From: Nemertoderma westbladi | Lineage: Eukaryota; Animalia; Xenacoelomorpha | Assembly (NCBI GenBank): GCA_032718475.1 | Contig: JAUCBJ010006632.1 | Span: forward strand, 1 to 64,000 | DNA length: 64,000 bases | Direction: 5' to 3' | In this document: one piece after another, positions 3,162 to 57,607 of the stretch | Position numbering within the stretch: the stretch's first letter is position 1 | Layout of the letters: each line of letters begins with the position of its first letter | Notes under the pieces: model-generated | The model's database searches: none | What the model was told of the DNA's origin: nothing | What the model saw: only the letters and a program-made list of their open reading frames with translations | Translations under genes and position numbers: made by a program

Positions 3162-3224
3162 TGAATATCTTAATGCAGTTTTATAAGGCTTTATTCCATA
3201 TTCAATTTTAGTTTATTAAATTGA

Positions 3225-14595: not shown

Positions 14596-14603
14596 CCGCT
14601 CCC
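14596..14603 (-). promoter_or_regulatory. Polypurine tract of element B
   Basis: GGGAGCGG on the minus strand, immediately before the 3' LTR. Confidence 0.85.
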
Positions 14604-14689
14604 AGAAAATGGGATTTAAGTCTATAAAATATACAAAATCACAGTTTCTAAAATATTAAAATACTCTAAACAGTTAGTCTTTCTTGCGT

Positions 14690-23600: not shown

Positions 23601-26560
23601 TAGGCTCCACACCTTGCGCATGAGATACTTCAGACCTAACGGGTTGACACATTGTTACAAGGGGTGGTGGTATACCCTTTTGTAAATTTACTAATTTATC
23701 GCGTTCTAACGCGATATTTTGCTGCACTTCCTGCAATTCTAACCTACTTTCCTTTACTGTTCCCTTTAACTGTTGAACAGTCTCTTCTAACTCTCGGACC
23801 TGTTGGGAGGAGCGAATGTGATTCTCCTCCATCTTTCCGAGGAGAACGTCCATCCCCCGCCGTCTCTCGTCTACCCAATCAACCGCCGAAACGGGATCCG
23901 CCAACGTTGTAGCGGGCGGACGAGGGACAACGGGCGACAAACCATGAATATTTCGCTCGGAGTCCAGAGTATGAACTATCTCATGGGCTGTTCTGCTGGG
24001 CACAGGTAACTTAGTGCTGTGCAACGGGAATTGAGAGGTAGGTTCAGGGAGTACAGGTGTCTCTACGACCGAAAGTGTGACTTCGGGAACAGGCCTAACT
24101 ATTTCAGGCTCATCTACTATAGTAGGGAGTCTCTCTATTGTAATTATTTGTTCTGTGGGTTCTGTACTCGCTAAGTTGGTGTTATTTAGTTGCCTTCTAA
24201 CAGCTGGAGGCAAATCAGGCAATTTTTGACGGTGGAACGTTCTTTTACGTCTGCTTAGGCGAGATCGATTTCCTCCGCCTTCAGTGTCGGTGGTATCGCC
24301 TTCCTCAGATGATGTATAACCCTGTCTTTTGGGAGTCGATCGACTCATCATCTGCATATGTGGCTGGCCACGAGAAAAGGGACCTTATGTCGCAAAACCT
24401 GATTCTGAGATAATCGCGTTTAAAGTTTCCCTCTATTTTTGAACAAATTTAATTGGATTATCAATTTAGAAATGTATAAAACGATGAGGGAAATTCAAAT
24501 TGGTTCTGATATTCAATATACCTAGGAAATAACTAATTACAGGAAGCAATATAAGATGTTGCAGTATATAACACTGTCTTAGGGTTTTCATGTCTGAATT
24601 TAGGACTGTAATAAAATTGTAATTGCACTACTGTAATACAGTATGTAGGTACTGTAGGCCTACAGTTATTTTTTAAATGCAATATGGCTGTCATTTTCTT
24701 AATTTATCTTCGTTAGTTCTTAAATTTTGTAATCCCAATAAAGAATTCAAAATACAAATAATTTTAAATTTTGTTAAAAATATTTATCTTTTTGGAAAAA
24801 TTTTAAATTAAAAAAAAAAATTTTTTGGTTACATGTTTTTTTGAAAATTTTGCAAAAATTTTTTTAAAATAGTTCATGAACAATATTAATAGTTTCAAAG
24901 TGTTAAAAGTTGTATAAAAAGCCGAATAACATTGAGCTGCCTAACTATATAGTTAGAATGCTATGATATTATTAATCTTTTCCATTTTTTTAAATAATCG
25001 CTTATTATAACCGCTATTAATAAAATTAAAACTACCCGATTCACCTTCACATAAATCGCTATAACTTTTTTTTGGAAATAGATATTGAGACACCGTTTTT
25101 TTTGTTAGAATCTCTGGAAAATTCTGCATCTCATAGGCCTAATAACTCAAAATCGACCTCCGGTGACATAAGGTCCCTTTTCTCGTGGCCAGCCACATAT
25201 TACTAGCTACTAACTGTTTACTGAAGTCGTCTTGCTTCTCTTGAAGATTTTCCAACTCCAGTTGGATGATCTCTTCAGCCGCTCTCCGTTCTGCTTCCGC
25301 CACTGCTGCCGCTTTTGCCTCTGCCGCTGCCGCTTTTGCCTCTGCCGCTGCCGCTTTTCTTTCTGCCTCTGCCACTGCTGCTATCTTTCTGTCTTCTATA
25401 CGTTTTTTCCTTACTTGTTCTTCCTTTTCTCTAGCGATGCGGAGTTGTTCATCGAATTTAGCTTGGTTCGCCGCTAACCTATCCACATCAATTGCATCTA
25501 ACACAAGTTTGGCTCCTTCGCTATTAGGGCTAAGTCCCTCTAGCCTTCTCCTCAACTCTTCATCTCCCAAAGAACGCTGATAGTCTGACAGATAGATGTC
25601 AATGGCATCCTTCTTATGCGGTTTCTCTGCCGTCGCTTCACTTTCCACTTGGGAAAAAGTAGCGTCCGTCGATTCTCCATGGGTTGAGCGCTCCTCCAAC
25701 TGAGCTTTCCACTGAGCTGCTCCTTGAACCTGGCGTCTCACCCTTTGAAACCAAGTCTTTACGGCAACTTGCAACGACGTGTCTTGTCTTCTTTTAGAAG
25801 CCTCCTCAAAGGCTGATAAGATTAGCCTAATTCGCAGAATTCTTTCTCTAACTTGATAAAGCAGTTGTCCCTGCTCTTGAGGTCCTTGAGGTTGTTTAAA
25901 CAGTTGTTTTTCTACTCGCTCCATAGAGCTGAAGAATCCTTGTGCGTATCCGGCTGCGGACCTCTTCCATACAGCTGGATCGATGGTTTCCTTGGCTACT
26001 CCCATCCGGTGTATGTCTTCCCAGGCAGCTTCTGATAAATCAAACGGGAGTCCGGGTCCGGGGAAGTTCCATTGCGACTCGACAATAGACGTCAGTTCTT
26101 CCCTCGTGTATCCCGCATAACTATCTCTAGTTGATCGTTGACTTCTCGCCCAATCGATCTGGTGTTCTTCCACCGCGATCAATAACCTAGTGAGTACGGC
26201 TGCAGGAAGGATGAGAAGGGGATCCGTATAAACCGCATCCGTCATCTCTGCTCCGCGCTCGGGTGTCAGCTCTACAGTATCCTCACTACTGGAGCTGTTG
26301 GGCCGCTGAGGAATAAGTTCTTGACTCGCGGGTTGTTGCTGTTCCGCTGCTTCTTGGTCCCGCTTGACCTGAGCTCGGGTGCCTATGATAGACCTACGAT
26401 GTTGGACTAGCCTAGGTTCTGTTATTACTACTGGAGGGATGACCTTTCTCACAGTGGGAGGTGAACTGAACTTACGACTCGACGGTTCTATATCTCTATC
26501 TGAGTCGCAGATAGTTACATCTAATAAACTGTCTGACAGGTTCTGCTTAGTATCAGACAT
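17633..26560 (-). pseudogene. Element B gag-pol polyprotein (Gag, PR, RT, RNase H, IN)
   Basis: Triple knuckle, LLDSGS, YMDD, HVFGDAS, HAG..CIPC, GVDLFGP, SDKGTNF, WWGGSWER. Broken by a MITE (24360-25196), a frameshift near 20320 and four in-frame TGA at 19196-19207. Confidence 0.95.
24360..25196. mobile_element. Non-autonomous TIR DNA transposon (MITE), 837 bp
   Basis: Perfect 32-bp TIRs GTGGCTGGCCACGAGAAAAGGGACCTTATGTC, ATAT on both flanks, AT-rich non-coding interior. Removal restores B's gag frame (..LVASN-MQMMS..). Confidence 0.93.
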
Positions 26561-27889
26561 GTTTGTATGTACAGTTGAATGCCTACTGCTATATTACAGT
26601 CTAAGCAAGTCTAGTAATTCAGTATTAACTGCTAGCCTAGTAATTAACTACCGATACTGCTACTCAGTGCAGCGTGATATATATAATATATTAGAATACC
26701 GGTATGCTTATAGTATATATAAGTATTATTACAGACTATGTTTATCACAGAATACCGGTATAATTTTAGCACAAATATATATAAATATATAATAGGCCTA
26801 TCGGGAATACCGGTATACAGCTTACAGTTTGTAGTATATATAATTCTGGACTAGAATTAATTACAAGTACCGGTATAATTTCAGCCTAAATTTATAGAAA
26901 TAAAGATAATAGGCCTATCGTAAATACCGGTATATCAATTATTTTAAATAATTGAATTTCTGAACTTTAAGGGTTACTTGGTTACTCTACTTACTTTATT
27001 ACCGTTATTTGAGCAGTAGTCCAACTGATATTGAGACCTAATGGTTATATGGTAGGCCTACTATTTATAAATCGTTAGATTTGATTTATAATATATATAT
27101 ACCCGTTTTAATGGGTTTTGTCAATGTTTGAAATAAATGTTATTATTTCTGGGGAGTAATCACTACACAAAGCGGTGCGCTTTCAGTGAAGTGTTACTTA
27201 TAGGACACTAAAACAAATAATGCTAATTTACCTAAGTTACTTAATACTACAAATTACGTACAATTCGGGTGAGATTACAATCTCTAAATAAACACAAAAA
27301 TTTACAAAAAACACAAAATACGAATTTTTAGGGTAATTTTACAAGAAGTCTACAAACCAGCCTAACAAAGGGTTAGAAATCTGGTTATTACAACGGACAG
27401 GGTACTACGGTATTTGAAAATAATAAGTAGTAGTGAATACACTGCGCTGTCCAGATAGGAAAATACCACCGCCTGACGACCTATAGCCGTATCGCTATAG
27501 GTTCTACGTTATGTATCACGGAGTGTTCCTACCTAGAAGTTAATAGAGCTAATCGAACATGCCTATCAACCACTTTACAACACAAATATAATGCCTACAC
27601 TAATTACTTTCGGAAAGCACTGTACACTAAACCCTAAATTAGGTACGAGTACTTGTACAACAGATAATCAGTAGTTAAATATACTTGAACAGTTAAAAGA
27701 ACCACGGCATCTGCTGGAGTAACCGGTGCACAAAATCACCAGTCTTTACCTACGCCTAGCAGCCCGTGTAGTACCGGGGTTAGTTTAACTATAACGGTAT
27801 GTACAACAAACACAATTACTGTAGGAACAAACTTGGGGAATGAATGTTGTGAATAATCGCATAAACTCTGAATAATAAATATTACGCAA

Positions 27890-28450
27890 CGCGTACAAAC
27901 TACTCAAACAAAATGCAGACCAAATACCGACAGACTACCATCAAGCCTAAACAAACTACGGTATATGCAGACTCCGAAATGATTAGGTAGTATGCGTTCT
28001 AACCCAGTAGTACGACTTATTCTTTAGCTGGGGGTTTACCTTATAGCATTTGGCTGCCCCTACTTCCTAACCGTACTTAATCGGACAGGTGCTCTACACA
28101 CACTACAATCCGTTCAGACCTAATAACAGCCAGACAATTATCCAGCCTACAAATTATCTAAATAAATATTATACGCTACCTGTACAGACTTACACAAACA
28201 AAGTACAGACCAAACGATGGCAGACTACTATCAAGCCTAAATAAACTACAGGACATGCAGACTCCGAAATGATTAGGTAGTATGCGTTCTAACCCAGTAG
28301 TACGACTTATTCTTTAGCTGGGGGTTTACCTTACAGCATTTGGCTGCCCCTACTTCCTAACCGTACTCAATCGGACAGGTGCTCTACACACACTGCAATC
28401 CGATCAGGCCTAACAGCAATCAGACAACAGCTCAGCCTACAAATTGTCTG
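27890..28450. repeat. ~290-bp tandem duplication in element B leader
   Basis: GCAGACTCCGAAATGATTAGG... at 27967 and 28257. Single copy in A (~6180-6470). Confidence 0.9.
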
Positions 28451-28625
28451 TACAATCTGATCAGGCTTACACGCCTTCTGTTCAATACTGGCCTACAAAC
28501 AAATAAAACTTGACAGAAATAAGTAAAAATCTCAATAAAAAACCAGGGCTGCAGTCCCTGATTAATTATTAAGGCCTACCGGTATATAACTATCAAAATC
28601 GAATAATACTGCTGTACTTATACGG

Positions 28626-28747
28626 AAGTACCGGTTAGGACAGTTGGGCCTACGGACCTACAGAAGTACTGGTTCTGGCAGTTGGACCTACGGGCCTATG
28701 GCAGTACCGGTTCTGGCAGTTGGGCCTACTGACCTACAGATGTACCG
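28626..28747. repeat. Three ~37-bp degenerate tandem units in element B leader
   Basis: AGTACCGGTT.TGGCAGTTGGGCCTAC.GACCTAC-like units. Confidence 0.75.
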
Positions 28748-28817
28748 TTCAGGTTTACCGGTTGTCCGGTACTTTCAACTTTATTGCTTACTGCAATAAA
28801 GAAGCAATATCCTTTAA

Positions 28818-30011
28818 TGTTCGCGCTTTCAGACCTTTGGCAGTTTAACCCGCCAAATTAGGATGTCTTCTAGATATTAAATGGCCTTTTAGCCTATGAC
28901 AAGTATTTGATTCACTACACTAGTCGAAACCAATCTGTGCGCGATCATTCACCCGCTGGTTATACCCGGGAGATTGGGTTCGACGGCTTAATCTTATTGC
29001 TATGTAAGCCTAATGTATTATTCGACTGACAGTATTATATAATCTCTGACAATATTATTCACCTTCGGGGAATATTAACAGTTCCTTTAGGACGTGGCGC
29101 TCTATCTATATAAACAGAGTTATGACTTAAACTACTCACAACGATATGGTTTAGTTATAATTCACATATATGGCGCATTCTTTAGGAAATGCTTCTTTAA
29201 CAGACTCACTCATATACAATGCTGCACAATACTGCACACTAATCTGCCGATCTTCACTGATTTTAGTCACATATAAAAGGAACACAGACTGACTCATGTA
29301 GGGTCTATCAAATAACATTCGATTCACTTCAAACCACTTTAACATAAGTCACAATCGTTTATCTGTAACCCTTCTCTCTTACCTTCGGTATATCAAGAAT
29401 ATTGGGTTTCGGGGTTATTTATCGTTATTCCAAATATAATAATTCATCAACCATATTATGAATAACTGACAGTAAATAGCAGTATAAAACAACAACTGAA
29501 CACTGATTGTTATGAGTTTGCAATGTTTCAGCAGTTTGTATGGTCAGATCAGGTCAGCAGTTAAAGGATATATGTCCTTATAATTAAACCTACTAGTGTT
29601 GGGCTAAAAAGCAGAAAAGCACAAAACACTACAAAGCCGTTCTTTCGTGGCTTTGAAACTCGTGACTACTACTCTATACGAGGATACCAACTACACTTAT
29701 TCCACGAAGCTCCCGTTCAACACAGAGAAAGAGCAGTGAGATAGGAAAAATTCAGTTCAGTAGCTCTGTGATAGGTCAAAATCAAGGCTAACTCAAATTC
29801 TATTGGGAGATACAAAAACAGGGCTATGACGCAACCTTCCTAGGCTGGTTGGCCGATTAAACAGAGCCCAGATACCTGCGTACAGCAAATCAGCCAATAA
29901 GCTGGTAGCTTGCACTATTTTAACTATAGATCCCTTTTTGAGTATTCTAGCGACCGGGGGGGAACTGGCCAGCAAAGCAAACGAACCAGTTATCCCACAA
30001 AAGCTTTTACA
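28818..30011 (-). mobile_element. 5' LTR of element B
   Basis: Direct repeat of 13402..14595. Confidence 0.97.
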
Positions 30012-32907
30012 AACATCAAACGGTATATATACATGGACAACAATTTAAAGTCCCTCCCATCGGTGGAAGAAGCCATTGATGTTGCTAAGGGAACGGTAGA
30101 GTGCTTGAAACGCGGTGGATTTAGACTAACCAAATTCACAAGAAACTCCCGTGAGTTTCTGGAATAGATCCCGGTGGAAGATCAAGGTGTTAAAGATCTG
30201 GACCTTATCAAGGACGATCTTCCGAAAACCAAGACGCTTGGTTTGAAATGGGACACAGAGAGAGATATCCTGTTTTTCCAGCTAAAACGGCGAGATAATC
30301 CAGTTTGAACTAAACGGATTTGTCTAAGTATCCTGAGCACTTATTTCGATCCATTGCGATTTATTAGCCCCGTTATATTGGTTGCTCGGAGATTAGTACA
30401 ACAAATGTGGCTTGAAAACCACTCGTGGGACGATCCACTTAAGGGAGAACTACTAAAGAAGTGGATGAAATGGGAAGATTCTCTACCATCCATCGAGAAC
30501 TTAACGATTTCCTGTTCATATTTTGGTCACGTTCTCCCCACATATTCCTAACAACTCCATGTGTTTGGAGACGCCAGCGATATGGGAATAGGTATAGTAG
30601 CCTACCTGAGAGTTGAAACTCCGGTTGGAATTAAAGTTGCCTTGGTTACCTCTAAGGCCTTGATAAACAACAAACTACGAGTTCCTCGAGTGGAGTTGAA
30701 GGCGGCTCTATACGCTGAAGCCATCGGCCGGAATGTAACAGAACAGATCGACTATCCACTGGAGAAAACTGTCTATTGGACCGATGCTTTACTCGTTTTG
30801 GAGTATATAACCAATGAAGTCTGTCAGTTCAGCGTCTTTGTTACCAACAGAGTAGCCATTATACTTAGTCGCACTAATGTAGATCAATGGAGACATTGCC
30901 CTGGGACGATTAATCCAGCCGACATCGCCCCCAGAGGAGCGACTCCCCAAGAACTGATAGATACTCCAGACTGGTTAGGTGGACCCGACTTCCTAAGTAA
31001 AGAAGAAGATGAATGGCATCCTCATCTTACCACGGCTGAGATTAGACAAGCCAAGGGACCAGAAAATGTCAAACCTAAAACCCGGGCAAGTAAATTAAAG
31101 TTATTCAAACCCGTGATAGATCTGTCTGTACTACACATTTCTGGGGACGATGCTGTGGATCTCAACTCACCCGCCACCAATAAATCTGTTGTAGAAATCA
31201 GAGAAAGAGACTAGAAATCTGGAACACCAGACGTCTCGCAGGGACTCTCACCTCTCCTACAGAGAGCGATAAATCACTATAGTTCCTGGAATAGGCTTTG
31301 TAAGGCCGTCGTGTATTTAAAGCGATGCTTCCATCATTACTACTCCATGACAAAGATCGCTAGTGATACCGCTCCACTGACATCCGAGCAGGTCCATGCT
31401 ATTAAAGATCTTCCCAAATACAAAGTATCAGAGAGGTTTCTGACGGAGAAGATCAGTTACCAGGAGCATGAAGAAACCAATAAGCAGATGCTGAGACTCC
31501 TACAATTCTATAAAGATTCCAATAAGTATTTCCTGTTGTTGAGAAATCCACAGACGCGCTTAAGGGATCGGATCGTTCTCTAGCACAATGATAGATGGGA
31601 TAATACGTGTTGGAGGGAGACTAACTAATGCTCCAGTATCCTTTGACACTAAGTTCCCCATACTCATTAGAAATCTTGAAATACAAATCAAGATGATTGG
31701 AGATGTTCACAGTAGGCTTTACCATGCTGGTAGAGAACGAGTTCTTAGCGAAATTCGAACTTGCTATTATTTTCATAAACCCCGTAGAGCTCTCAACCAA
31801 GTTCTTAGGAACTGTATACCCTGTAGGAAAGCATTTAGTAGGCCTTTAACACAGCGAGAGGCAGAATTACCTAGGGAACGAGTAAGCTTTTATGAACCAC
31901 CCTTTACTAATACCGGTGTGGATTTATTTGGCCCTATTGAAGTATATCGTGCTAGGACTATAGTCAAGCGATGGTGTGTCATCTTTGTCTGTATGACTTG
32001 TAGAGCGATCCATCTAGATATGGTGAATGATCTATCTACCAACAGTTTCATACTGAGTTTACGCCGACAGATTGCTCGCTTTGGAACTAGCAACACGCTG
32101 AGATCTGATAAGGGAACGAACTTCATTGGCGCCAATAATGAGATCAACGCTTACGTTAGAGATTGGAACCAAAGACAGGTGGACGATCAGCTAAGGGTAA
32201 CAGCATCAACGCCGCCGATGCCCCTTGGTGGGGAGGAAGTTGGGAGAGATTGATAAGGAGCGTGAAGACCGCATTTCACTTTATAGTGCCTTGCCGCGCG
32301 TATCTCACCGATGAACTTTTTGCGGACGTTAATGGAGGAAATCGCTGCCTATCTTAACGAGAGACCGCTTATGCCAGTCTCATCCAGTCCCGACTCCCTA
32401 GAAGCGCTAACACCCGCGCATTTCTTACTGAAGAAACCTGTCGCCATGCTCCCACGATCGGAAATTACAGACGGAGACAAATACTGCCGACAAACTTGGC
32501 AGCTTATGCAGTTGTTATCCCGTCGTTTTGCTGACTATTTCGAAAAACATTATCTGCCTATGCTACAACTTCGAACCAAATGGTTTGCGCAGCAGGAAAA
32601 CGTCAGCGCCGGAGACATGGTACTTATTGTGGACTCAGATCTTTCACGTAAGCGGTGGCAGACAGGTCGTATAATCGAGACTCATCTGTCCGATGATGGT
32701 TTAGTGCGATCGGTAGAACTCGTCGTCATGCGAAGTAACTTTAAGAAACCTGGAATTGTGTTCGAGACACAGCAACTCAACCGCCCAGTTGGTCGTTTAT
32801 GTTTACTGGAAAGAGACAGAGTACTCTCCGGAAACTATGGAAGGCAAGATACTCCTCCCACGACCACCTCCCTAATCCAACAAACATCTAGGGACTCCCC
32901 AACGTAA
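30012..32907 (+). pseudogene. Element A RT C-terminus, RNase H and integrase
   Basis: YMDN (degenerate YMDD), VFGDAS, YWTDA, HCPGTINPAD, GVDLFGP, SDKGTNF. Several stops and frameshifts. Highly similar to B. Confidence 0.92.
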
Positions 32908-34613: not shown

Positions 34614-37600
34614 ATGACTGAGTTGATAGAAGATGATCTTGGTATCAGGGAGCGATATACCCTACCGTTGCAAGCGTTTGTTGATAGCTTAATATGCGGC
34701 GACGATAGTCCCACTACTACGGAGGACGATGGCCGTTATATCGAACCGCCAATGTCGAAGGAACAACTCACGCGTGAATTGGACTATAGAAAATTCACCG
34801 CTCGCTATACACATCGTAATGGTACGTATATGGTCATCCTATCGATTTACACGATACGGACGATGTAGACACCGAAAGGGAAATGGTTCTATTTAAGTAT
34901 CATACCCAGCGGAGTCGGAAAGATAAACCGAGAATCGAACACAAGAATTCTATTCGAAACCGACTCGAAAGAGAAGACGTTGAAGAGCCGGATAAACGCA
35001 GTGACTTCAACGAATATCTGGAATTTTTGAGAGAAACATATCTCAATATTGCCAGTCAACAAAATCTAGAAACTCGATATCCTCAAGGTATACATCATGA
35101 CCCTATGATAGAACTCAAACGGCTCTATTTCACTATGATGTACCTTACCGCCGATCGACCGCTACCTGTTGTCCCGGATAGCTTCGAACAGATGGAGGAA
35201 ATTGTAAAACTGGAGAACGATCACCCGCGTTTCCCCTACAGGACGTGCGTCTTTGGTATTATTGCGATGAATGCCCTAGACCCAACCAGCAAACGGAAAG
35301 ACATAAACATCCGCGGAGACGTTGCACTAAACACAGTTTTACTCGCTATACTTACGGGAGTTTCGAGCGAAACTTGTTCGACGTATCACCCACGCTCGCT
35401 CGACTCAAACGATCCTTAAATAAACCCATGATCAGAGTTCCGGAATACTCGGTTAGACCTCCTCACTCCCTAGTAAGACCTCAAACTCTTGATCCTAATA
35501 GTATCACGGATCCTCCTGAACTGTATTCACTGTTCAAAGGTCTTGTGTTACCCGAACAATTAATCGGTGGCACTCCGGTAGTGGGCTCTCTAGATATTCG
35601 CCCATCCTACCTAGCCGGATTGGGACGCGGACATCTAATATCGCCGTTCAACCCATACAATCGTCCCGGTTTAACCCCGATACAACCCGTCACCAAAGTC
35701 AAGGAGAGCGTTATACGAAATGCGTTAGACTCTATTCGGCAGAAGATCGGAAAAGGAACTTACGATTGTTTAGAGAAACACAAATTGCAGCAACAAGTCC
35801 AAGCAGTGAAGGAGTTGGCCTTACCCCAGTTCGATCAAGAAATCAAGAACCTCGAGGAAGACATCGAACTTGGAGAAACCTATTCTCTACAAGAGTTTTT
35901 AAATGAACGCTTACAACGACAAGCGGAGGAAAATCAGCTCGAGGAGAAACACATCGAAATGGATGAGAGAGAAGAAGCAGCTTTAACCCAACCAGAAGCT
36001 CAAATCCTTATGACTGATCTCTATTCCAAAACCATCATTCATCCCTCAATGGTTCCCAATTTCGGAGACAAACTCTTCGCAACGGTACAACCCCAACTGG
36101 TTGATATCAACCTAAGATCCCGAGATCTTATCGCTGACGCTCCTATGTTACAGTGTCTGCCAATCGAGGCCGCTTGTGTCGACGGTATACTCGTTGAACC
36201 TCCGGACAATCGAGCGGATCTTGTCCGTCGTATGGTACACGAGGTCAACATACGCGCTAGACCTTTACCAAACTCGTTTTATGGGATCAAAGACCACCCT
36301 TATTATGTCAATCTAACTCAATATTATATGGTAAAACCTGAAGATCCGACACATAGTCTAAGGTTTCTACCACTAATAAATCCTCTCAACCTTGTCGAAC
36401 TCGAACAATTGCAGAAACATCTGGATCAGTTAGTAAAAGTAAACTCATTCAGAAAACCCTACAATGTTTCCAGAATAGAGAAGGATATAACGACTCCATA
36501 TAATCTCGATGGATTTATTAAAACTCGATTAGTCCATTGGAATCTCGACGTATTATTCGAGGAAGAGAGAATACAAAGATATGGAGATGTAGAGACGTAT
36601 ACTATACAGTATGTGGCGAATGCGCCACCTTGTGGCATCCGGTGGGGATTACCCTAGAGAACGCCACTAAAGAGTGGAACAAAACTCTTAACATTATCGA
36701 AATGTACGGAGTTGTCACTTATGATAACGAAGGTAGCGTTCCGGTCGGAGAACTGGGAACTACGCGCATGATACATATACGAGGACTATCTGGTTCTACC
36801 CACGTGTTTACTCGAGCGTGTTCCAACATGATTGATTATTCTTTTGAGACTCTCACCGAGATACAAAAGAAACTCCGACATGGACAATTCGAACTCGTGC
36901 AGCGTTACGTCACCAACACCGAGCGCAAACCGGCCATGGGTATTGATGGATTGATGTTACCCCAGCCCGTGCCGAGATGTTGTTTAACAAAAGAATCCTT
37001 AAAATCGGCTCAGCTGTTTATGGAGATCTCCAAAACGACTTCAGGAACATGGAGAATATCCCATATCCTTTCGTAGATATCCAGCTGATTGCTCCCTGGG
37101 CAGAAGGCCGAGGTTTCTTTCGAACTATGTATGCCAATACACCCAGCGGCATCAATAAAGTACAACGAACCTCCATCGGACATCTTGCTTTTCAAGAATA
37201 CGGATGGAATTTCAAAGTCAGAAACCCTATCAACTATCAACAAGTATATGGAGATCATTATTCTCGATTATACTTCGACGGACCATTGACCGCACCTAGC
37301 GTCGTGTATAGCTTCATGAGCGTTCCACTTCGTCCCTCATTAGCTATATACACTATCTTCGAAAACGCCGCACTTGTCGGTTGGCTAGCCGATGTGTGCA
37401 GTCGTACTATACGCGCCCATCCCTTGATACTTGGAACTAAACTCGCCAAGCTAGATAAACACAATAAATTCATCCGCTTTGAATGTTTTAGGCGATTCCT
37501 GACTCCGTTCCATAACGTTGATAGTCAGTTCAAGGACCGCGCTCTGACCAAGCTCAGCCAAAGAGACTCAGCTGCTGAGAAGTTAGACAGCGCTGGATTC

Positions 37601-38338
37601 GCCATTTTCAAAGACATTTGTATACAGAACTTACATTCCTCTGTTATACAAAGACCTCGAATCCCCATGGGTTATTCTATCGTGGAAGTTCAGACACTGG
37701 GTTCGCTTGAGGAGACAGCTACGCCTACCTCAGCTATGCAATTGGAAGACGAACCAATATGCTTAGAAACCGAGGAGATTCAGCCCACAGCGCCCCGGAG
37801 CAGAGACAACGACTACGTCTTGGAATGGTATCAAGGTCCACAATGTCTCACTGCGTACGATTATCAACATGCCAATTATGTTTCTAGGAAACGTTGCCGA
37901 TTGTGCGCATCTTGAGACCATTTCACCCCGGAGTACTCCAACGTGCCCTGCTCCTACTTCCATGAACAGCCTATGATGGAGATCTATTGTGCATATTGTA
38001 GACTCAATGACTTGCACATTTTCGCAGTCTGCCCCCAATTTATGACTCAATGCCATCATTGTCAGTTTAAAGGACATGCAAGTTTTGATTGCCCTTTCAA
38101 TCGCGATCTGGAAAGCGTAGATGAAATGATTACCCTACGCTATATCCGAGCCTGGGAAGCAAACACAGATTTACATTGTGAGTCACGTCATCGCTATTAC
38201 CCTGGACGTGCCTACGAAGGGGTTTATGCATTCCACCCGTACCTATTCGCGTCCGTGGAACAAAAATCTTGCACGCCGAGTTACGAACTAATGAAGCGTG
38301 TTGGCGAGAATATTTCGACCAAATTTGTTCATAAATAA
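34614..38338 (+). pseudogene. Element A extra 3' ORF: DEDDy 3'-5' exonuclease-like domain plus zinc knuckles (frameshifted)
   Basis: ExoI VTYDNEG (~36714), LP..V..MLFNKRILKIGSAVYGD, PFVDIQL, PLRPSLAIYTIFE. Then CRLC..H, CAYC..H..C and CHHCQFKGHASFDC. Colinear with C's 52272..55987. Confidence 0.75.
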
Positions 38339-39461: not shown

Positions 39462-39551
39462 TGAATTACAGAATTACCGGTAGTTTTTTTTTTGTAGGCC
39501 TATTTGTCTGTATGTGAATGTAGCCTTACTACACCAATATATGACTATACG

Positions 39552-41735
39552 TGTTACGGTATATGGCGCTGTATCCACAGTATTAGTCCATTATGCAGTA
39601 TGCAGTATTAGTCCATTATGCAGTATGCAGTATTAGTCCGTTATACTGTACGTAATATTAGTCCGTTGTGCAGTATAATTATTTAGATAAGGCGCAGTGT
39701 GGTGACATTTAGGTAAGGAAGTTAAAACGCCCATATATTTTGCATCCATTCATTTTGTATAGTATGTAGCCCTACCTACGTAATTTTGTATTAGGATATA
39801 TGTAGATAGTTCCAGGGTAGCGAGTTTACTCGGACCCTGGATTTTGTGCTTGCTGATATTAGTTTGATAGGGCTAGCATATAGGGACGCTGTCCTGGCCA
39901 TTCAGCAGCCAGAGACGTGATCCATTACCATATATGGTAATAATTTGAGGGCATAGGGCTACAATCCGGTCTCCTTATTGGATTAACTGCTTCCAGGTTG
40001 GTTTAATGCTAGCATGGACTGGAGAGCCAATGGGAGAGCGATTGAGTCACCTTATTGCATCACCCCATCGGGATCACCTATAAATTGGCGGTGTGCCGGT
40101 AGGGCCTTTTGTTGTTCATATGTTCATGCCTTATCACATGACACACCCCTGTTACAATTTACTTGCTGAGCTGTCTCTAATTTTGTATTAGGATATCGTA
40201 TTTTCTGCAATTTGCTAATTTTGATTAATTTCTTGGAATGATTTGCTAGTACGATTACTTTGCTTGTGTTTCTCAATAATTCCTTCGATTACTGCAAATT
40301 ACAATCGAACTATGATTTCTACCTTTGATTGATGGTTCTATGTGATTCTTTTCTGCGCAATAATCCCAAGGGATTCCTGAGACTGTCAGACTTTGTGATT
40401 TGCATGCGCCGCTACGGTAGCTATTAGCATCATGGAGGGCTAAGGTGCCAGTGGGCGGTGGGCGCATCGGGGGATTGAGCGACTAGGAGAGAGCGGAGGA
40501 TTCAAAGCGGGCAACGCTGGCCAGGGTCACCGTTGCCGCCGGGTATCTTGCACTGCGGCACGCAGACCGATCGCCGGTACAGTATCTAGGGGGCTGATGA
40601 TCCAGGTTTTGTCTCTATTTAGTATTAGGGGGGCAGGAATTGGGTTAGTTAGGAATCCTAGATGTACCCGGGAGAGGCCTGCGCGTCCGCGTATTACAAC
40701 GTTGAGTGTGGAGTACGAGTAGTGAATTGCACAATTGTAAACTGTGATTTCTAACGCTGATTGGTGTGTTATTGAAGTGTGCCTAAGATTACGAATGCTT
40801 AGATAGGCGCTCTTTTCCTTTGATTGATTTCTATTTCTTAGTTACAATAATTAGTTATTGATTAGGTCAAAGTAATACGGCAATTTAGGCTATTACTAGC
40901 GAAACCTGTTGCGTGATAAATTAGAATTACGTATTCTGGAACTCTTAGTAATTAGTACGCTGTTAAATATTTGTGACTGTAATTAATTAGTAAAAAATTA
41001 AGAATTAGTACGCAGCATAGCGGAGAGTAGCTAAGGTAATAATTAGTGTACTGTAAACTATTCACGCTGAGCGGTTATTTGCATTAGCGGGCAATCAGCT
41101 AGAACGCACTATTCGGTACGCACGATACGCTAGTAATTTTGCTGGCCTAAAGCCAGTCGCGGGCAGTTTTAGACTCGGAGTGGTATTATCCACGTAGAAA
41201 CAGATACTGTACCATTTTGATATTTTAAATATTCTCGCATTCACACATTACGTTAGGGAACCTCCAGTATTCGCGATTAGAAAGACGTAGGTAATAGCGT
41301 GCTTTAATAGTGATAGAATTAGGCGTAAGAATACTCTGAGTGCAAGGCCTCTCGCACTCGTCTTAAGTAAACTTAGGGAGCCGACTCGGGTTTATTGTTT
41401 TGGTTATTCCTGCGTGGCTCATAGATTCGAACAGTTAGCTCTCTATCGAGCAATCGGTAGAGAAAGGAACAAGCGATTTTGCAGGAGTTGTGTAAATTTA
41501 GTAAAATATATTAGCGGACGGCAGATTAGCGCCATCTAACGGTAAGTAGCGGTTTGTATTTAGCAACCCTTACAATTTAGTAATATCACGCTCCTGAGCC
41601 CCTTTACTTAACAGTAGAGCAGTCTTTGTGTCTTATTGGTTAGACGAGAACTTATTAGGTTGGCAGAAGGATATTAACGGGTATTGGTCTGTTCAACAGT
41701 TCTGCTGTTAGTATAGAGGTCGCGGTTGTTTATCA
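39552..41735 (+). mobile_element. 5' LTR of element C (2184 bp)
   Basis: TGTTAC...TTATCA, repeated at 57608..59788. Contains ~25-bp tandem units CAGTATTAGTCCATTATGCAGTATG at ~39578-39678. Confidence 0.97.
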
Positions 41736-43064
41736 GTAATACGCGTTTTTGTTTTGCTGTACTGCGTACAGTAAATACGAATTAGATTACTGTATTAGGT
41801 ACTGTACTGCGTACGGTGAGACAGAGAGTATTCTTAGGCTGATTAGTTTAGATTACTGATACTTCGTATCAGTAATACGCGCATATTGCTTTGCTGTACT
41901 GCGTATAGTAAGGCAGATAGTGTATTCTTAGGCTGATAGTAGTATCACAGTATTAAGTAATAAGTTGGAGCACGTGATCGTCTGCTGTAGGCTATAGGCT
42001 AGCGTACAGTAAGACATTGAGTTTATTCTATTAGGTTGTTAGTTTAGATTACTGTATTCACTGGCTGCGTACAATAGTACAGTAGTACATTAGGCTGATT
42101 GTTGTTACTGCGGACGGTAGAAGGACATTTGTTTGCCGTACCACACACAGTATCATTAGGCTGTTAGGTTGGTGTACTGTTTTACTTACTGTGCTGCATA
42201 CAGTGAATGTACGGTAGTGCGTTTTGCTAATTGCGAATACAGCAGTTCCTTAGGCCTTAGGGCAAACAGTAATTAGTAAGTTTTTTGAAAATTTTAGCTA
42301 GGTTTGCGAGAATTCAGTTTTCGGTCAAAATTATTTTGTAAAATTCTAGAGTTTTGTACCGGTATGTTAGGTAACCGCTTAGTTATTTTATACCATCTGG
42401 AGATACATGGCAAGACGGAACTTCTGAGTTTGGGGTTTGTGTGGGTCTGCGGGTTCGGTTTGCAATCAGCGAAGGGCCTGAATCTTTGGACGCGGACGTG
42501 GAATCTCACAGCAAACAAGGTTGGTTGTTCTGTTGGCACCAGTGTGTTTGTGGAAGCAGTAAAAAATTACCGGTTGTTTAACTGCGAAGCTGAACTCAAT
42601 TTATTAGTTAGGATATTTAGGTTTAGCCGGCCATGGTTTTTTGAATCGCTCAAGTTAGAGAGAGAGTTAGAGAGAGTCGCAACCCGAAGATGTAGCCACG
42701 CGCTAGTGGATACATATAATATTTGAAATTAAAATTACGTTGATTGGAGCTATATATATAAAATTAGAAATATTCGGGTGGCAAGTTTATTTTGAATATT
42801 TTGTATTAGATTCAAAGTTATTTTGTGCTATACCGGTATTTAATACTATATAGTAGCTATATAATAATATTTTTTGTTTAAATATTGTGTTAGTATTTGC
42901 TATAACTATATACCCCATTAAATTCACAATATTGCATTGCGAATTTATTTGACATTTGGACCAACTGATTATTTGACAAATAATTTGACCGTATTTCGGT
43001 TAAATTATAATTATATCTCGAACTTTTGCGAGATTTTTGCCAGAAGGCAAATATTATTTAGACT

Positions 43065-46000
43065 ATGAGTGTCTCAGACAAAGAGGCACTAGAGGACAGC
43101 TATGAGACGGCGGCTGGACCGCCGACTGACGATAGCGTAAATATTACTGTTGATGACAATGCCGACTATGACGACGCAGCGAGCGACGCTGACGTAAGTG
43201 AACAGGAGGACGAGACAGTGACTAGTGAGGAAGAACAGCAGCCTCAGGTAATAGTATTAGGATCCCCTACCGCTACTGATAGGAAGGACTGTATGGCAGC
43301 CCGGACAGAGGTGAGTGATAGGGAGGGTAGTGTAGTAGAAGCGAGAGCCCGGAGCCCGGTTTCCAGACCTGTGGGTATGGTAAGTGCCGTGGTCCCGACG
43401 GCTGTTAGGAGTACCTGTAGTTCCCGAAATAATCCTTCAAGTCCACCAAGTGTGAGTCAGGTAAGCGAGAGAGAACTTGATATCGCGATAAAGAAGAAAC
43501 TTCGCGCGCATGCCGGACATATAACTCGGACGGCGGACAAGGTAAGGAAGATGTTAGCTGACCCAGCGAACATCGGGAGGGTAGAGTTAGTAGAGATTAG
43601 AAGAGGATATAACTCAGCGTTATTCAAGCAGACGGAGGAGCTTGCAGTCCTAGCGAAGAAGGCAGTAGAGTCTCAGTCGAGCGACGTAGCAACGAGGATT
43701 TACGACAGGGTTTTAGCAGCCTTGTTAGAGCACCGCGAGTTATCGGAGCGATTCCGACGAGTTAGGACGGAGAACTGGCTGCTATGGGCATCACAAACGC
43801 AGGCGACTCAGGTGAGTGACGCAGAGTTAAGAGACTTAGTGGAGCGGGAAGAGATCCAAGATAAGGAAGAGCGCCGTTATCAGAGGGAAGTTACTAGCTG
43901 GCTGATGCAGAATGGAGTGGTGGTACCAGGCCAGGTGCTACCGACGACGGAGAACATTCAACAGAGGACGTTGACTCCACCCGACGACGCATCTAGAGAC
44001 AGCGGCGATTCCCAGGTTAGTCACGCGCGAGGTAAGGTAATATGTGCTAGATCCCTTGTTTCTCACAACTCGGCGGAGGAGAGAAGACGCCGACTAGACG
44101 AACAGCAGGCGGAAGTTTTGCGTGCACAGGAAGCACGGAAGGAAGCCGAGCGGGAACGGGAGCGCACACGTAAGTTGGACGCAGAGTTACGAGAGTTGGA
44201 AGAGATAAGTAAGCGCGAGCGAGCGGAACGCGAGCAAAGGGAATGTGAACTCCAAGCCGAGCGCGAGCGCGAGGAACTCGAATGCGAACAGAGAGAACGC
44301 GAACTCCAACTCGAATGCGAACGGGAAGCGAAGAAACGCGAACTCCAACTTGAATGCGAACGGGAAGCGAAGAAACGCGAACTCCAACTCGAACGCGAAC
44401 AGGAAGCGAAGAAACGCGAACTCCAAGCCGAACGCGAGCGCAAGAAACTCGATCGTGAACAGAAGGAGCGCGAGCTTCAACTCGAACGCGGACGCAAGGA
44501 ACGCGAACTCGAGATCGAGAAAAGAAGACGCGCATTGTATGAAGAAAAGGCGCGAGTGGAAGAAGAGAGCGCAGCGAGACGAGCGAGGGAAGAAGAAGAG
44601 CGTAAACTGGCGCAGTTGGAAAGTGCGAGATTAAGTTTAGAGAGCGAAGAACGGACTAGGAAGGCGAACGAAATCGCCGAGAAGGGGATGCGAATGCTCG
44701 AAGAATGTGGGGCGAGTGTGGGGACAGAGTTGCGAGAACTGTTCGCACTGCAGAAGGCCGAACAGGAAGCGAGAACTCCGACTATACGCGAGTCAACGAC
44801 GACCAGAATTCCTATACCCGGTCCAGCTATTACGAGTACACGGATCGTTAAACCGTTCTCTACATATCGCACGCCAGTTGGTATTAGTGCTTCACCTATC
44901 GCCCAGGATCTACGTCATCGGAACGCCGCACCACTGTATACCGAACGTGACAACGGAGAATTTAGAGAAGAAACTCCAACGGGACGAGTATTTGGCGAAC
45001 CGAACCCGCGGGTTTGGAATACGCGGACGGAGCGCCGACCCAGTTCGACGGAGAACTTCCGGGTTAAACCGGAAGAGGGATCATATGAGAGACAGCGGAT
45101 TACTCAGATAGAGCCGACTATACAACAGAACCCTAGCCAGGAATTTATTACGAGGGATGAGTTAAGTGCTAGTTTAGCGCAAGCTATATCGCCGCACATC
45201 CAACCTATAACGGACATGCTTAGCAACCTACGGTTAAAGGAAGCAGCCCAGGTAAGAAGTAATTCTAATCCTAGCAGGCCTGAGTTAGATAAAGTCCAGC
45301 CTAGTCAACGAGTACGCATATCGGAGGAGACTATACCACATAGACCTCAGGTAAGGACGCCTGTCCCGAATATCCATAATCCCAATTTCGAAAATTCGGC
45401 AGAAAGATTTATTGAGGAAGCTTGGGTCAGGGCCTCGGCGCGCAAACCATCGCGAGCGCTAAGGACTGACACTGAGTCAAGCGATGAAGAGGAAGAAATG
45501 AGATGTCAGAAGTCCCGAAACTATAAGGAAAGAAGGACGGACGCGGAGCAGGTAAGTTGGAACCACCGGGAAAGGACCAGACTTAACAACACTGCGGAAC
45601 TAAACCATTTGTTAACCCGGAACGACGCAACCCTTAGGGACATAGGTAAGTTTGCTGCTAGGCAAGGACTGCCGACGCAGCAACCCCAGAAGTTTATGGG
45701 TAACCATAAACATTGGAGGACCTTCAAAACCTATGTCGACGAGCAGCTAACCAACAGCACCTTTACTCCCAACGAAAAGTTCAACTATTTGCTTCAGATG
45801 CTCCATCGAGAACCTAGAGCCATTGCTGATAATTTCGTCGGCAATGAAAGAGCATTTGAGTTAGCGATGAAGATGCTTAGTGACATTTACGGGAATAAAA
45901 CCAAGATGGCGCAGTCGATAGTAGAAGACTTGGGTAAGGGCGGAAGGATTACAACTCCGTTAGAGCTGTTGAACTTAGCAAACGCTATTTCGAACGCATT

Positions 46001-49000
46001 GGACATCTTGAGGACGGTGAATCTACCTCATCATGGTGATCACGCCGAAGTTTTGAAAAGCGTAATAAGACGTTTAAACATGCGTTACAGACAGAAATGG
46101 CGCAAATTAGAGAATAAGTTGGAGGGCCAAGGTAAGGTGTTGACACTTCAGCATATTCATGACATGATAGCCACAGACGCAGTAGCAGAGATGAAATCAA
46201 ACTTCTCAGAAGAGAATATGAGGGAGTCTAAACCTGTTACCGGTAAGTCTATGGTAAGTTTTGACGATGACAGGACCACTGTGACATTTAACTCAGTAGA
46301 CAGATATAATTCGAATACCCCAGCCTTTAGATCAGACTCGCGAGTATGGTCAGGTGAGCGGTTAGATAGACCTAGGTTAAAGCAACAGGAGTTGCCGGAT
46401 GGATTTGTAGGTTGCCAATACTGTTTACTAAAGGAGGTAAGATCTGACGACCATAAGTTAGATAGTTGCAGACGGTTCAAAGAATTAAATTCGGAACAGA
46501 GAAGAGTTCAAGTGCGGACGTTGGACACCTGTTGGGCATGTCTTGCGCCAGGTCATGTACGGCGGCAGTGCCCGAACAGCAAGGACGGATGCATGGAATG
46601 CGGCAGACTACATCACAAGTTGCTACATGCGGATTTCCACACCCCAACGGACCGTTACTTACAGCGAAATCCTCAAAGGAAGGGGAGCAAAGAACCCGTA
46701 TCGATAAGGAGGAATACGTACACTGGCATCCAGGACGATGGTTACCAACCAGGTTCGTCGGACGAGGATGGCGAGTCGAGCGCGAGAGAAGTGACCTGCC
46801 AAGGTTTCACCGCGGATAGTTCATCGACCAGCGCGCGGACGTATTTATCATCGGCCACGTCGGAAATATTTAGCGTGATTCCGGTGAAACTCACTGGCGA
46901 TAAGGGATCGAAACGAATATATGTGATGCTGGACACTGCGTCCACATTATCGTATATCGACGAGGAAGTGGCGAGAGCCGTTTCTAGCTTCCAGGACGCC
47001 GAGGAGATCCAAATAGAGTTGAAGTCTATGCATGGGGTAGGAGACCTCAAGGTACACAGAATTTCGGTGGAACTAGATTCCCTACTTCCGAGAGACCAAC
47101 ACACTCGACAAGAACGGAAAGCTTTGCCATTGGACGGATTTAAGTGTCTAGCTATGAAGGGATTCGGCAGGCAGTTAGGTAAGGTGCCGCCGATGAGTCC
47201 CATAGCACAGGAGTATTTTGACAAGCTCAGGATACCCAGACACCAGGTAGGTTATAGGAATGTTTCTATGTTGATTGGTGCAGAACAGCTGATCGCACAC
47301 CAGATATGGGAAACGAGACCAGCTGAGCCGCATGTCAATGGACCACATGCCCATAGGACCATACTAGGTTGGTATACACGAGTACCCATGTCTTATGAGT
47401 TTACAGGTGGCGACAAGCCAATGGACAGATACGATGAATTACAGCCTATAATTCAACCACCGTTAGTAGAACCACCAGACATAGACGAGTTTAGGAGAAC
47501 CTGTATTGACCACTATAGTGACTTTAGCGAGTCGGACGAGGAGTTGATTCCCGATAATGTTAGGTTGTCGGAACCACTTCACAATGACCGGACAGATAGT
47601 GAACCCGAGGACTACTGTTATCAGACCCGTGGGTCTGGTTCAGCGGCCCACGCTACCTATTTGACTAACGTTTTGACTTATACAGACATAGTGGAGGGTC
47701 AAGTGGCTAAATATCGAGACCTAGACATTTTCCAATACAGTGAGGAGGAATTACAGAAGGAATTGATACGCCAGGACCTCGAGACAGGAGCCAGAACCGT
47801 CGAATGGCTGGACAGGGACGCAATGGAACCCGGTGGATATGACCTAGCCATGTCTACTGATGAGAAGCGGTCGCTGGAGATGATGGAAGATACCATACGT
47901 CTACTACCGACTGGACATTTTGAAGTTGGAATGTTGTGGCGTCGACAACCACCTAAGTTGGAGAACAACTACAGCTTAGCCTTGAAAAGATTAAACGGAG
48001 TAAGGGCTCGGTTGTTGAGGAATCCAGGCATTAGGGAGAAGTATTGCGCCCAGATCAACAACTATTTCGCCAAGGGATTTGCTGGGAAGGTAGAGGACCC
48101 TGACTTAGTGACAGACCAGACTTAGCTTCCACACCACTATGTGACTCACCCTGACAAGCCAGACAAAGTCCGAGTAGTCAACGACTGCGCAGCAGTCTAT
48201 AGAGGTATGTCCCTGAATTCAGAGTTGATGGATGGTCCCAACCTGAATAACTATTTGATTGGAATACTGTTGCGTTTTAGACAGCGGCGATTCGCATTTA
48301 CTTGTGACATCGAGGCGATGTTCCACCAGGTAAGAGCCTGTAAGGCAGACCAGGATAGCCTTCGATTTCTCTGGTTTGAGAATGAAGACTTATCCGGCCC
48401 AGTGGTTACATACCAAATGTACGTTAGGATATTTGGCGCCCGCGATAGTCCGAATGGCACGCTGTTCGTTCTAAAGAAAACGGCAACAGCCCAGATTGGT
48501 AAGTACCCAGTAGAAGTAATCGAGTCCATCTTGAGAAACTTCTATATGGACGACGGATTGGTGTCCAAGGACACAGCGGAACAAGCCATAGAAGTGGCTC
48601 ACGGCCTGCAAGAGTGCTTGGCTACAGGGGGTTTTCCTCTAACCAAGTTCACTACTAACTCGGAGGCCCTATTAGAATCGTTCCCGGTAAAAGATCGCGG
48701 GAGCGGAGACATTGAATTGGGGGTAGAACCAATCCCCATGGCGCGAGTACTGGGACTCGCTTGGAATCCGAACTCGGATAAGTTCCAGGTAAGAGTTAGA
48801 TTTGAGCCCAGTAGCCCAGACAAAGTTTTGACAAAGAGAATTTGCTTATCGACATTAAGTAGACTATTTGACCCGATGAACTTTATCAGTCCGGTTATAT
48901 TACAGGCACGAGCGTGCATGAGGAAAATTTGGTTGTCCGACTTAGAGTGGGACGAACCAATATCTCCTATACATGCAAAGCAGTGGAGGGAGTGGGAAGC

Positions 49001-51507
49001 CGAGTTGCATCTATTGAAAAATATAGATGTACCCCGTTCCTACTTTCCGAATCAGCTGGTATTTCCAGCTGATTTAGAACTGCATTTATTTAGTGACCGG
49101 CTTTGGTATGGTAGCCTACCTTCGCCGAGAGGTAAGTCAGGACAAATTTGAGACGGCCTTTGTGACTTCTAGATCAAAGACAATGCCGGTCAAATATATG
49201 ACTGTCCCTCGTGCAGAGTTACAGGCGGCTGTAGTTTCGGTCGAGGTAAGTAAGCAAATAACTGAGGAGTTAGACACGACATTGACCTTATTCTATTGGA
49301 CGGACGCATCCTTGGTGTTAGTATACATTGCGGCCGACAATATTGCACTAAAGACATTTGTGGCCAATAGACGCGCTCAGATCGTTGATTTTTCGACGAA
49401 GGAACAATGGAGACATTGTCCGGGAGTGTTGAACCCGGCCGACATAACTTCGAGAGGTGCAATGCCGGCGGAATTCTGTCGGGAAGAGTCGCAGGAGTTT
49501 TGGTTGCATGGACCTGATTTTCTAACGAGGACACAGGAACATTGGCCAGAGCGACTAAAGATAGTGACCAATCCGATGCCTGAAGATGCAGAAGTCAAGG
49601 TGGAGAAAGTCTCTAAGTCGAAGTCTAAAGCCAAACTTAAGTCATTGGAGCGGCCTGAAGAGTCATTGGAGCGGCCTGAAGAATCATTGGAGCGGCCCGG
49701 AGACCTGTCAGACCAACAGACTTACGTGACTACTAGGTCCGGAAGGGTAAGTTATGACGTAAAACCACCCTTACAGACTAAACCAGAGTCACAGTTGGTA
49801 AGTGACGGACAGAAAATGACCGACACAATGGAGTCTTTGGTTTCCAAACCTGCGGGTTTGGATTCGAAACTTCCATTAGTTAGCGGACAACCGTCGCTGG
49901 CATTAGAGTCATGCAGTATTTATGACAAATTACTAAATTCGTCTGCCTCTTGGCTGACAATTTGTAAAAGAACTGCGTGGTTAAGCCGATACGTTTCGTA
50001 CCTTTGTTTAAAACATTCGAAACATTTGAGAGAACCATTGAGCACCAATAGTGAGCGAATTCAGAAATTGAAACAACCTCTGACAGAGGATGAGATTGAT
50101 CAAGCGGAATTAAAGCATTTGAAGCATTATCAAATGTGTGCCTTCCCGAAAGAATTCCATCTATTATCGGCTCATCGACCAGTTCTCTATAAACCCCTTA
50201 GAAAATGGAGTCCATTAATCCATAAGGGTTTAATTTGTCATAGATCGAGAATCCAGACTGTCGACATAAACTCACAGTTTAGGTTCCCAGTGATAATCCC
50301 TAGTCACCCAATAGAATTGCAAAGAGCGATTCTATGGGATATACACAAGAGGTTGCATCACGCGGGAAAGTTACACTGTCTGTCGGCAGCGAGACAGCGA
50401 TTCATTCTATTGCAGCCAAGCAGGGCAGTAGGCACTATGTACGACGCCTGTCTGGTTTGCAAGAGAGTGAACGCCAGAGTATTGGAACAGGAGATGGCTG
50501 AACTCCCGGAAGCGAGAGTGCAGGCATATGACCCACCCTTTACGAATACAGGGGTGGACTGTTTTGGTCCGATTGAAGCAAAGAGTGGACGGCTGACCCA
50601 CAAGCGATGGGGTCTGCTACTGACATGTATGGCCAGTAGAGCCATACACATCGAGCGTGTGGCAGACATGTCGACCAAATCTCTGCTCCTGGCCTTAAAG
50701 AGATTTATGGCCAGGAGAGGACTAGTAAAGGCGTTCTACTCTGACAAGGGTACAAACTTTGTCGGAGGGAATAGCGAGTTGAACGCGGCTCATAAAGCAG
50801 CACAGAATAAGGAAATTTCTGCAGCACTTTTGCCGCAACGAGTAGAATGGAGATTCAATACTCCAGAAAGTCCTTGGAGAGGAGGAAGTTGGGAGCGTTT
50901 GGTTCGCTCTGTGAAGCAGGCCATTGCCAAAACATTGCCTGTGAACAAACAACTTACCGACGACGAACTGGTCACAGCTTTTATTGAAATCGAGCATACC
51001 CTAAACTCGAGGCCGATAGCTATGTTGCCAGACGGTGTTGCATTAACGCCGAATCATTTGCTAATGCAGAGTCCAGCATTTCTTGTGCCGGCATCAGAAC
51101 CCATTAGTGCCGACCTATATAGTCGTAAGAGCTGGAAAGTAACACAGTTTGTGGCGTACACATTCTGGGAATATTGGCGGGAATACTATCTTCCCACCAT
51201 ATCCACCAGAACAAAGTGGTACAAAACGGTTCGGAGTCTCCAAAGGGGAGATTACGTGTTGATAACCGAACCCATTGTCAAGAGAAAGTATTGGGAGACG
51301 GGAGTGATCTTGCACACACACCCAGACGTGCAAAACATAGTGCGCACAGTCACTGTGAAAATTAGGTGCAAGTGTCCGCACCCAAAAAAGTGTAAAACTA
51401 ATGGTTTACACACCTTGGACCGACCGGTCCAAGATATTGTGTTATTAGAGGAGACACGTATCGAGACGGGAGATTATAATTTGTCTCCTGCCTCAAAACT
51501 GAATTAG
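43065..51507 (+). pseudogene. Element C gag-pol polyprotein
   Basis: Coiled-coil Gag, triple knuckle, MLDTAS, FYMDD, HCPGVLNPAD, GVDCFGP, SDKGTNF, WRGGSWER. One in-frame stop (48123-48125) and a frameshift in the RNase H LHLFSD motif (~49095). Confidence 0.95.
44210..44520 (+). repeat. Coding tandem repeats (ERELQLECEREAKK-like, 42-bp units) in C Gag
   Basis: Repeated GAACTCCAACTCGAATGCGAACGGGAAGCGAAGAAACGC. A further 21-bp x3 repeat (SLERPEE) lies at ~49641-49698. Confidence 0.9.
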
Positions 51508-57600: not shown

Positions 57601-57607
57601 GGAGCGG
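57601..57607 (+). promoter_or_regulatory. Polypurine tract of element C
   Basis: GGAGCGG immediately before the 3' LTR. Confidence 0.85.

Follow-up and report, generated by a model that had tools for sequence, protein, structure and literature searches.

Among the LTR retrotransposons of rotifers, Juno and Vesta are gypsy-like. Juno, Vesta and the Terminons carry a DEDDy exonuclease as ORF3, and the available part of the report (Rodriguez et al. 2017, PMC5408684) presents the bdelloid ORF3 as an RNase D-like, non-env frame behind pol, patchy in distribution, with an Asp-to-Glu change of its own ('DEED') and an activity that is unproven there. The Dada DNA transposons are also mobile elements encoding a DEDDy exonuclease; in the sections of PMC3706591 available, that domain is a canonical DEDD inserted inside the DDE transposase. 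The RNase D of Trypanosoma brucei (TbRND; PDB 7c42/7c45), as far as described in the sections of PMC7797062 at hand, has a DEDDy domain followed by a linker and tandem CCHC knuckles, and is a cellular enzyme with four knuckles that trims the U tails of guide RNAs. EXD2, with a Tyr-x3-Asp-Ala signature in ExoIII, belongs to the cellular EXD/WRN/Nibbler (mut-7)/Egalitarian group, whose members have no knuckles. Nematode Cer elements, of the Bel/Pao group, may once have been said to hold an exonuclease-like extra domain. According to the profile of the family Belpaoviridae (PMC8742986), Bel/Pao elements are 4.2-10 kb long with LTRs of 0.2-1.2 kb and a tRNA primer, and env is the only third gene. 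In a literature search that covered mostly open-access sources and does not establish absence from print, we found no report of a Bel/Pao exonuclease ORF, of its fusion to knuckles or of a Glu in ExoIII, nor a precedent for an active Tyr-x3-Glu DEDD enzyme. The parts available of PMC6431247, PMC5718144 and PMC3706591 added nothing on a Bel/Pao exonuclease, those of PMC11599104 and PMC7968707 were uninformative here, and the word 'exonuclease' was absent from PMC3118150, PMC554778 and PMC9094657. We describe here two Bel/Pao elements of Nemertoderma westbladi in which, as judged from sequence comparison, ORF3 is a true accessory gene of long standing that is under selection, with an authentic Glu in ExoIII that occurs also in part of a wider, unnamed family.

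The window, that is, the whole stretch of 64,000 nucleotides analysed, is a nest of LTR elements: the copy A1, a second copy of the same family, A2, nested inside it, and C downstream. A1 lies on the forward strand and begins with a 5' LTR at about 4807-5907; its broken gag-pol, split by A2, ends at 32907 (LTR to pol, 4807..32907), and no 3' LTR of A1 was found within the window. The ORF3 of A1 (34614..38338, forward strand) was delimited by three-frame translation and tblastn and comprises about 1,240 codons, its start codon being a guess. The frame is broken, with frame changes near 35240, 36630 and 36970, probably another near 34850, and one in-frame stop at 37913-37915. The copy A2 (13402..30011, reverse strand) has 1194-bp LTRs with 2 site differences, and its ORF3 consists of the N-terminal part only (about 14828-16016), without exonuclease and without knuckles. 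In addition to this deletion, A2 has four stops in the RNase H-integrase region and, in gag, an insertion of about 845 bp (24356-25200) with perfect 36-bp terminal inverted repeats, which is likely a non-autonomous DNA transposon; despite this damage its LTRs are nearly identical, and A2 is probably a defective copy mobilised in trans.

Element C (39551..59788, forward strand) is 20.2 kb long, with 2.19-kb LTRs that are 99.2% identical, gag-pol at 43062-51507 and an ORF3 of about 1,235 codons at 52281..55987. One stop (53190-53192) and one frame change (about 53370-53400) interrupt this ORF3, and its exonuclease and knuckles lie in a single unbroken frame. The LTRs of both A2 and C have TG...CA ends and are flanked by 5-bp target duplications. 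Like Belpaoviridae (PMC8742986), the elements combine LTRs and gag with a pol whose domains are in PR-RT-RH-IN order; the Pao-type Pfam domains PF03564, PF05380, PF17921 and PF18701 are present in A and C, and their pols are nested among Bel/Pao pols in the tree. In contrast to the profile of that family, C is 20.2 kb long, has 2.2-kb LTRs and an exonuclease ORF, and lacks a tRNA-type site; the assignment of A and C rests on pol, size and primer being typical described traits only. In both, ORF3 is a separate, non-env frame located 0.8-1.7 kb behind pol. A reading of ORF3 as env was rejected, since no transmembrane stretch was found in it (best 19-residue hydropathy, 1.44). The rotifer comparison differs in the host element, which is Bel/Pao here, whereas the text available of PMC5408684 does not contain BEL or Pao as whole words.

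The preliminary description of this DNA had claimed that A and C, with unrelated-looking LTRs, keep the same exonuclease ORF with three knuckles and a shared Tyr-x3-Glu. This was confirmed. All eight motifs quoted for each element occur once each and in the same order, at 35120, 36720, 36798, 37001, 37067, 37349 (YTIFE), 37382 and 37490 in A and at 52566, 53729, 53804, 54002, 54080, 54344 (YLVLE), 54377 and 54479 in C, and the LTRs of A and C have no common word longer than 13 bases. A tblastn search of the window with the ORF3 of C matched A with E 1e-34 (26% identity over 484 columns), and the upstream ORF3 pieces of A were matched with E 7e-6 and 4e-8. Of six piece-to-piece alignments, five scored higher than every one of 300 shuffles. 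The sixth, in which the middle of A (35422-36654) was compared with the long frame of C, was at chance level, with 70 of 300 shuffles scoring as high. Identity between A and C is 41-51% in RT, 34% in RNase H-integrase, 24-26% in gag and 26-30% in ORF3. On these alignments, A and C are distantly related Bel/Pao elements with a homologous extra gene behind pol.

The predicted product of ORF3 is a DEDDy-type exonuclease domain followed by three zinc knuckles and a conserved tail. Upstream of these lies an N-terminal domain (35070..35420 in A1, forward strand), common to A and C only, with an RLY.....YL motif and a C-x2-C...C-x2-H cluster; it had no Pfam match, and its best Atlas score (0.78) pointed to no relative. 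In A1 (forward strand) the putative ExoI is YDNEG (36720..36734), ExoII is VYGDL (37016..37030) and ExoIII is YTIFE (37349..37363), with three knuckle-like Cys/His clusters, the first of which holds the stop codon, and the tail at 37895..38300. The exonuclease domain of C (53630..54420, forward strand) has YDNEG at 53729, VQSDL at 54017 and YLVLE at 54344-54358, and its three clusters and tail are at 54947..55330. No exonuclease domain was detected in ORF3 by Pfam; the Atlas gave a PF01612 cluster at rank 3 (0.91, 160 shared features). Word-seeded homologue searches yielded nothing beyond a query row, and a single-sequence search of the PDB yielded two weak non-nuclease matches only. A search of 1.84 billion representatives, however, yielded nine remote homologues (P0001-P0009) of 246-727 residues with E 5e-9 to 9e-4, most of which have an exonuclease, a variable linker, three knuckles and the conserved tail. 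In P0001 the knuckle-and-tail module is duplicated and the exonuclease site is degenerate, the ExoI Glu and the ExoII Asp being lost.

With a profile of the nine-row family, human EXD2 was the top match (E 8.7e-8), and the ExoIII helix aligned on that of EXD2, this stretch being weak by itself. EXD2 and its group resemble the ORF3 domain also in the N-terminal strand and helix that precede ExoI and in the fold matches below. The second match was T. brucei RNase D, mainly via its knuckles; its exonuclease part contributed 7 bits only, so that the common design may be convergent. Lin28 and nucleocapsids were matched via their knuckles, and Egalitarian (E 0.003) and WRN (E 0.16) were lower matches. 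Folding of a single sequence was not usable (pLDDT 33.5). An AlphaFold model from an 18-row alignment (pLDDT 68, pTM 0.69) places the Tyr and the Glu of ExoIII on the long final helix, H234-261. Among the fold matches listed, this model met DnaQ-like 3'-5' exonucleases throughout (Z 9.2-11.2, rmsd about 4 A over 148-174 residues; best Foldseek E 7e-4), including NrnC/diDNase, Pol I proofreading domains, Nibbler, WRN, RNase D, EXD1 and Egalitarian, and a search of BFVD returned generic 3'-5' exonucleases only. The match to TbRND (Z 9.2) was tied with many others. DNA-acting enzymes score as high as RNA-acting ones, and with the top scores tied the fold does not choose between an RNA and a DNA substrate. 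Profile, Atlas, model and fold matches all point to a DnaQ/RNase D-like fold. Compared with the rotifer ORF3, to which it is likened by description only (PMC5408684, in the part available), the frame here is fused to three knuckles and a tail and has a long N-terminal part.

We also scanned contigs for the pattern of this cassette. Among viral contigs, none of 53 pattern matches was confirmed; among metagenome contigs, 11 of 50 were, all from one other assembly. In five of these 11 loci (L001, L003, L006, L007 and L009) the ORF is closely preceded, on its own strand, by a Bel/Pao pol; no pol was detected in the other six. The elements with the cassette include L007:1-9745, L009:4013-5899 and L001:5484-7154, and L007 has the order LTR end, gag, pol, ORF3, LTR. 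The ORFs of these L loci have D-T-E in ExoI and Tyr-x3-Asp in ExoIII; their ExoII appears to be Glu, in a region that is shortened and aligns less surely.

Conservation of the active site was counted in 13 lineages (C, A, the nine remote homologues, L003 and L005; near-copies were left out) over 204 columns, each filled in at least eight of the 13. Only five columns are at least 90% acidic, and four of these are catalytic: ExoI D (11 of 11), ExoI E (10 of 11), ExoII (11 of 12) and ExoIII (11 of 11), the fifth being the Asp of the family's D-T (12 of 12). Median column identity is 0.33 and the flanks average 0.32-0.52. The possibility, raised in the preliminary description, that the catalytic positions are no more conserved than flanking residues was therefore not borne out. 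A and C have the D-x-E of DEDDy enzymes in ExoI and, in ExoII, an Asp aligned to that of EXD2, but Tyr-x3-Glu in place of the canonical Tyr-x3-Asp in ExoIII, so that the domain is best classed as a variant of the DEDDy fold family and not as a canonical member; the 'variant active site' of the preliminary description stands as a fact of alignment. At the ExoIII position, four lineages (A, C, P0002 and P0008) have Glu and seven have Asp, and the residue is missing in two. The residue that follows is Asn or Ser behind Glu (4/4) and Ala, Gly or Val behind Asp (7/7). An Asp ten residues downstream (LAD) was rejected as the ExoIII ligand, since its column is not acidic in homologues. The four Glu rows do not form one clade on the ORF3 tree, where the best tree has two changes, but their grouping as one clade is not rejected (AU; P = 0.34). 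The Glu codon is not among the variable places shown for copies of A (40 of 63) or C (40 of 237), although the remaining places could include it. In the notation of the rotifer 'DEED', whose position is read from the motif name alone (PMC5408684, in the part available), A and C are D-E-D-E, whereas the L loci appear to be D-E-E-D.

Copies of ORF3 in public DNA runs, where the A and C families are multicopy (4861 and 2427 contigs), are under purifying selection. In the core of A, 15 of 19 places polymorphic among copies are third codon positions (P = 6e-5; 40 of 63 variable places shown), compared with three of 14 at places that set the window copy apart from nearly all others, a pattern of decay after insertion, and six of seven at the places in between. 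In the long frame of C, 14 of 18 variable places are third positions (P = 1e-4; 40 of 237 shown), and in its N-terminal frame 10 of 17, five places near frame breaks being left out of the count for C. This third-position excess is in line with the earlier claim that the gene is selected. Constraint does not look uniform, however: between A1 and A2, dN/dS is 0.07-0.12 in pol and gag but 0.76 (74 codons) and 0.37 (170 codons) in the N-terminal part of ORF3, with the caveat that the truncated ORF3 of A2 was free to decay. A2 is recent by its LTRs and yet lacks the exonuclease part, suggesting that the exonuclease is dispensable in cis, although the deletion could postdate the insertion of A2.

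We read ORF3 of A and C as an inherited gene for a DEDDy and knuckle protein, which would be an active, RNA-binding 3'-5' exonuclease serving the element as an accessory in trans, and give this reading a probability of roughly 0.55. Activity by itself is probable: the other catalytic residues survive 74% divergence, and the ExoIII column never leaves Asp/Glu. The protein would be made from a transcript of its own and act in trans. More likely than not, two metal ions would still be bound by the four carboxylates and the Tyr, with a local adjustment that makes room for the longer Glu. In T. brucei RNase D the knuckles raise RNA binding and cleavage (PMC7797062, in the part available); by analogy, those of ORF3 may bind single-stranded RNA and pass its 3' end to the two-metal site. 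As for the job, anti-silencing, by trimming or destroying the host small RNAs that silence the element, seems the likeliest single candidate, but we propose it tentatively and at less than even odds; it is favoured by the patchiness of the gene, by its dispensability in cis and by several close cellular relatives in small-RNA pathways. Nibbler acts in such a pathway. The same applies to mut-7 and EXD1, according to the available part of PMC5408684. The fullest version is doubtful, namely that the exonuclease and zinc-knuckle family, on several Bel/Pao lineages, is a small-RNA-destroying anti-silencing factor whose two-metal site has been retuned by Asp-to-Glu shifts at positions that differ among the lineages, with an active Tyr-x3-Glu nuclease among its forms.

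Instead, the ORF3 protein might be an RNA-binding adaptor or decoy with little or no catalytic activity, in the manner of EXD1, Egalitarian or Maelstrom, with the Glu marking lost catalysis. Replacement of a metal-binding Asp by Glu often lowers activity greatly, and P0001 has lost two catalytic residues; EXD1 and Egalitarian, both among the fold matches, are catalytically dead RNA binders (PMC5408684, in the part available). However, A and C, only 26% identical, retain the Tyr and all other catalytic residues, the ExoIII column is acidic in all 11 lineages with the residue, and in the L group of Bel/Pao it is ExoII that appears to have changed from Asp to Glu, a pattern that resembles tolerated retuning more than decay. 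We consider a dead adaptor unlikely.

Slightly less likely again is a role of the exonuclease in the replication of the element itself, where it would, for example, trim an RNA primer made by the element itself, or RNA or cDNA 3' ends in the particle; 3'-end processing has been proposed for the rotifer ORF3 (PMC5408684, in the part available). No tRNA-type primer site was found behind the 5' LTR of A1, A2 or C. Instead, the 10-11 bases right behind it (A1, 5908-5918; A2, 28807-28817, reverse strand; C, 41736-41745) are exactly complementary, in reverse orientation, to a site in the element's own LTR (positions 409, 441 and 1138), with letters that differ among the three elements, suggesting a Tf1-like self-priming signature. 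Chance matches are expected at 0.001-0.002 each, although matches are also seen at 1, 3 and 4 further offsets of 399. Such a signature would suit a replication role, but L007 has the cassette together with a TGG-type primer site behind its LTR, described Bel/Pao elements have gag, pol and sometimes env only (PMC8742986), and ORF3 is a separate frame outside the polyprotein.

That ORF3 is inherited, as the preferred reading of an accessory exonuclease holds, was examined with trees of pol and of ORF3; C was the query with which the outside pol rows were collected. The RNase H plus integrase tree, built on 37 of 125 rows chosen to keep diversity and limit run time, joins A and C as sisters (100/99) within a group of 15 rows (97/92), and on integrase they are sisters with an SH-aLRT of 99.9 among 113 rows and 98 with the mixture model. 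On the ORF3 tree, from which the ExoII and ExoIII columns were removed, A and C also group (98/97), with a long-branch warning. Sisterhood in both pol and ORF3 trees suggests that the gene is old and was likely inherited from the common ancestor of A and C, in agreement with the preliminary description, which had called for this comparison and had argued against a one-off capture. Later exchange of ORF3 between the two families in one host is very improbable: the cassette is patchy across Bel/Pao, both branches are long and could attract, and exchange between retroelements has been proposed for rotifers (PMC5408684, in the part available), but A and C are sisters in the pol trees just described and their ORF3 has diverged like gag and more than pol.

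The elements from the other assembly fall into another pol group than A and C (98/90, RNase H plus integrase). Forcing A, C and L together on this region costs 27 log units (AU; P = 0.054), so that one origin for the three cassettes is not rejected; with 46 integrases, the tree with A, C and L together scored higher than an unconstrained tree from a quick search (P = 0.77), a result that speaks against separate origins. Two separate Bel/Pao lineages with the cassette, A/C and L, are our best estimate and not a proof. The earlier term 'lineage-defining' therefore overstates the case, since a Bel/Pao group with another position in the best tree has the same cassette behind pol, the ExoIII Glu is also found in two remote homologues, and A2 is without the exonuclease part.

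With these elements, the range of exonuclease accessory genes widens from the retroelements of rotifers to Bel/Pao, for which env is the only third gene described; they also define a family that Pfam misses. The natural Glu and Asp versions of one catalytic position offer a direct test of the tolerance of a two-metal site. Should small RNAs prove to be its target, the enzyme would represent a rare case, in animals, of a counter-defence against piRNA/siRNA silencing that a transposon encodes.

Some further features of the window were noted. In the gag of C (43062-48125) the N-terminus is greatly extended and includes a charged coiled-coil repeat, of 39-nt units at 44188-44522. A fragment on the reverse strand (38365-39473), whose gag-likeness is suggested by our own reading and which had no Pfam match, abuts the stop of the A1 ORF3 and is cut off by C. 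Another gag-like fragment on the reverse strand (2025-3212) has matches to Retrotrans_gag, a knuckle and a protease, all below the cut-off. Short tandem arrays of 21/30-nt and 60-nt units are located at 28-509 and 63166-63465.
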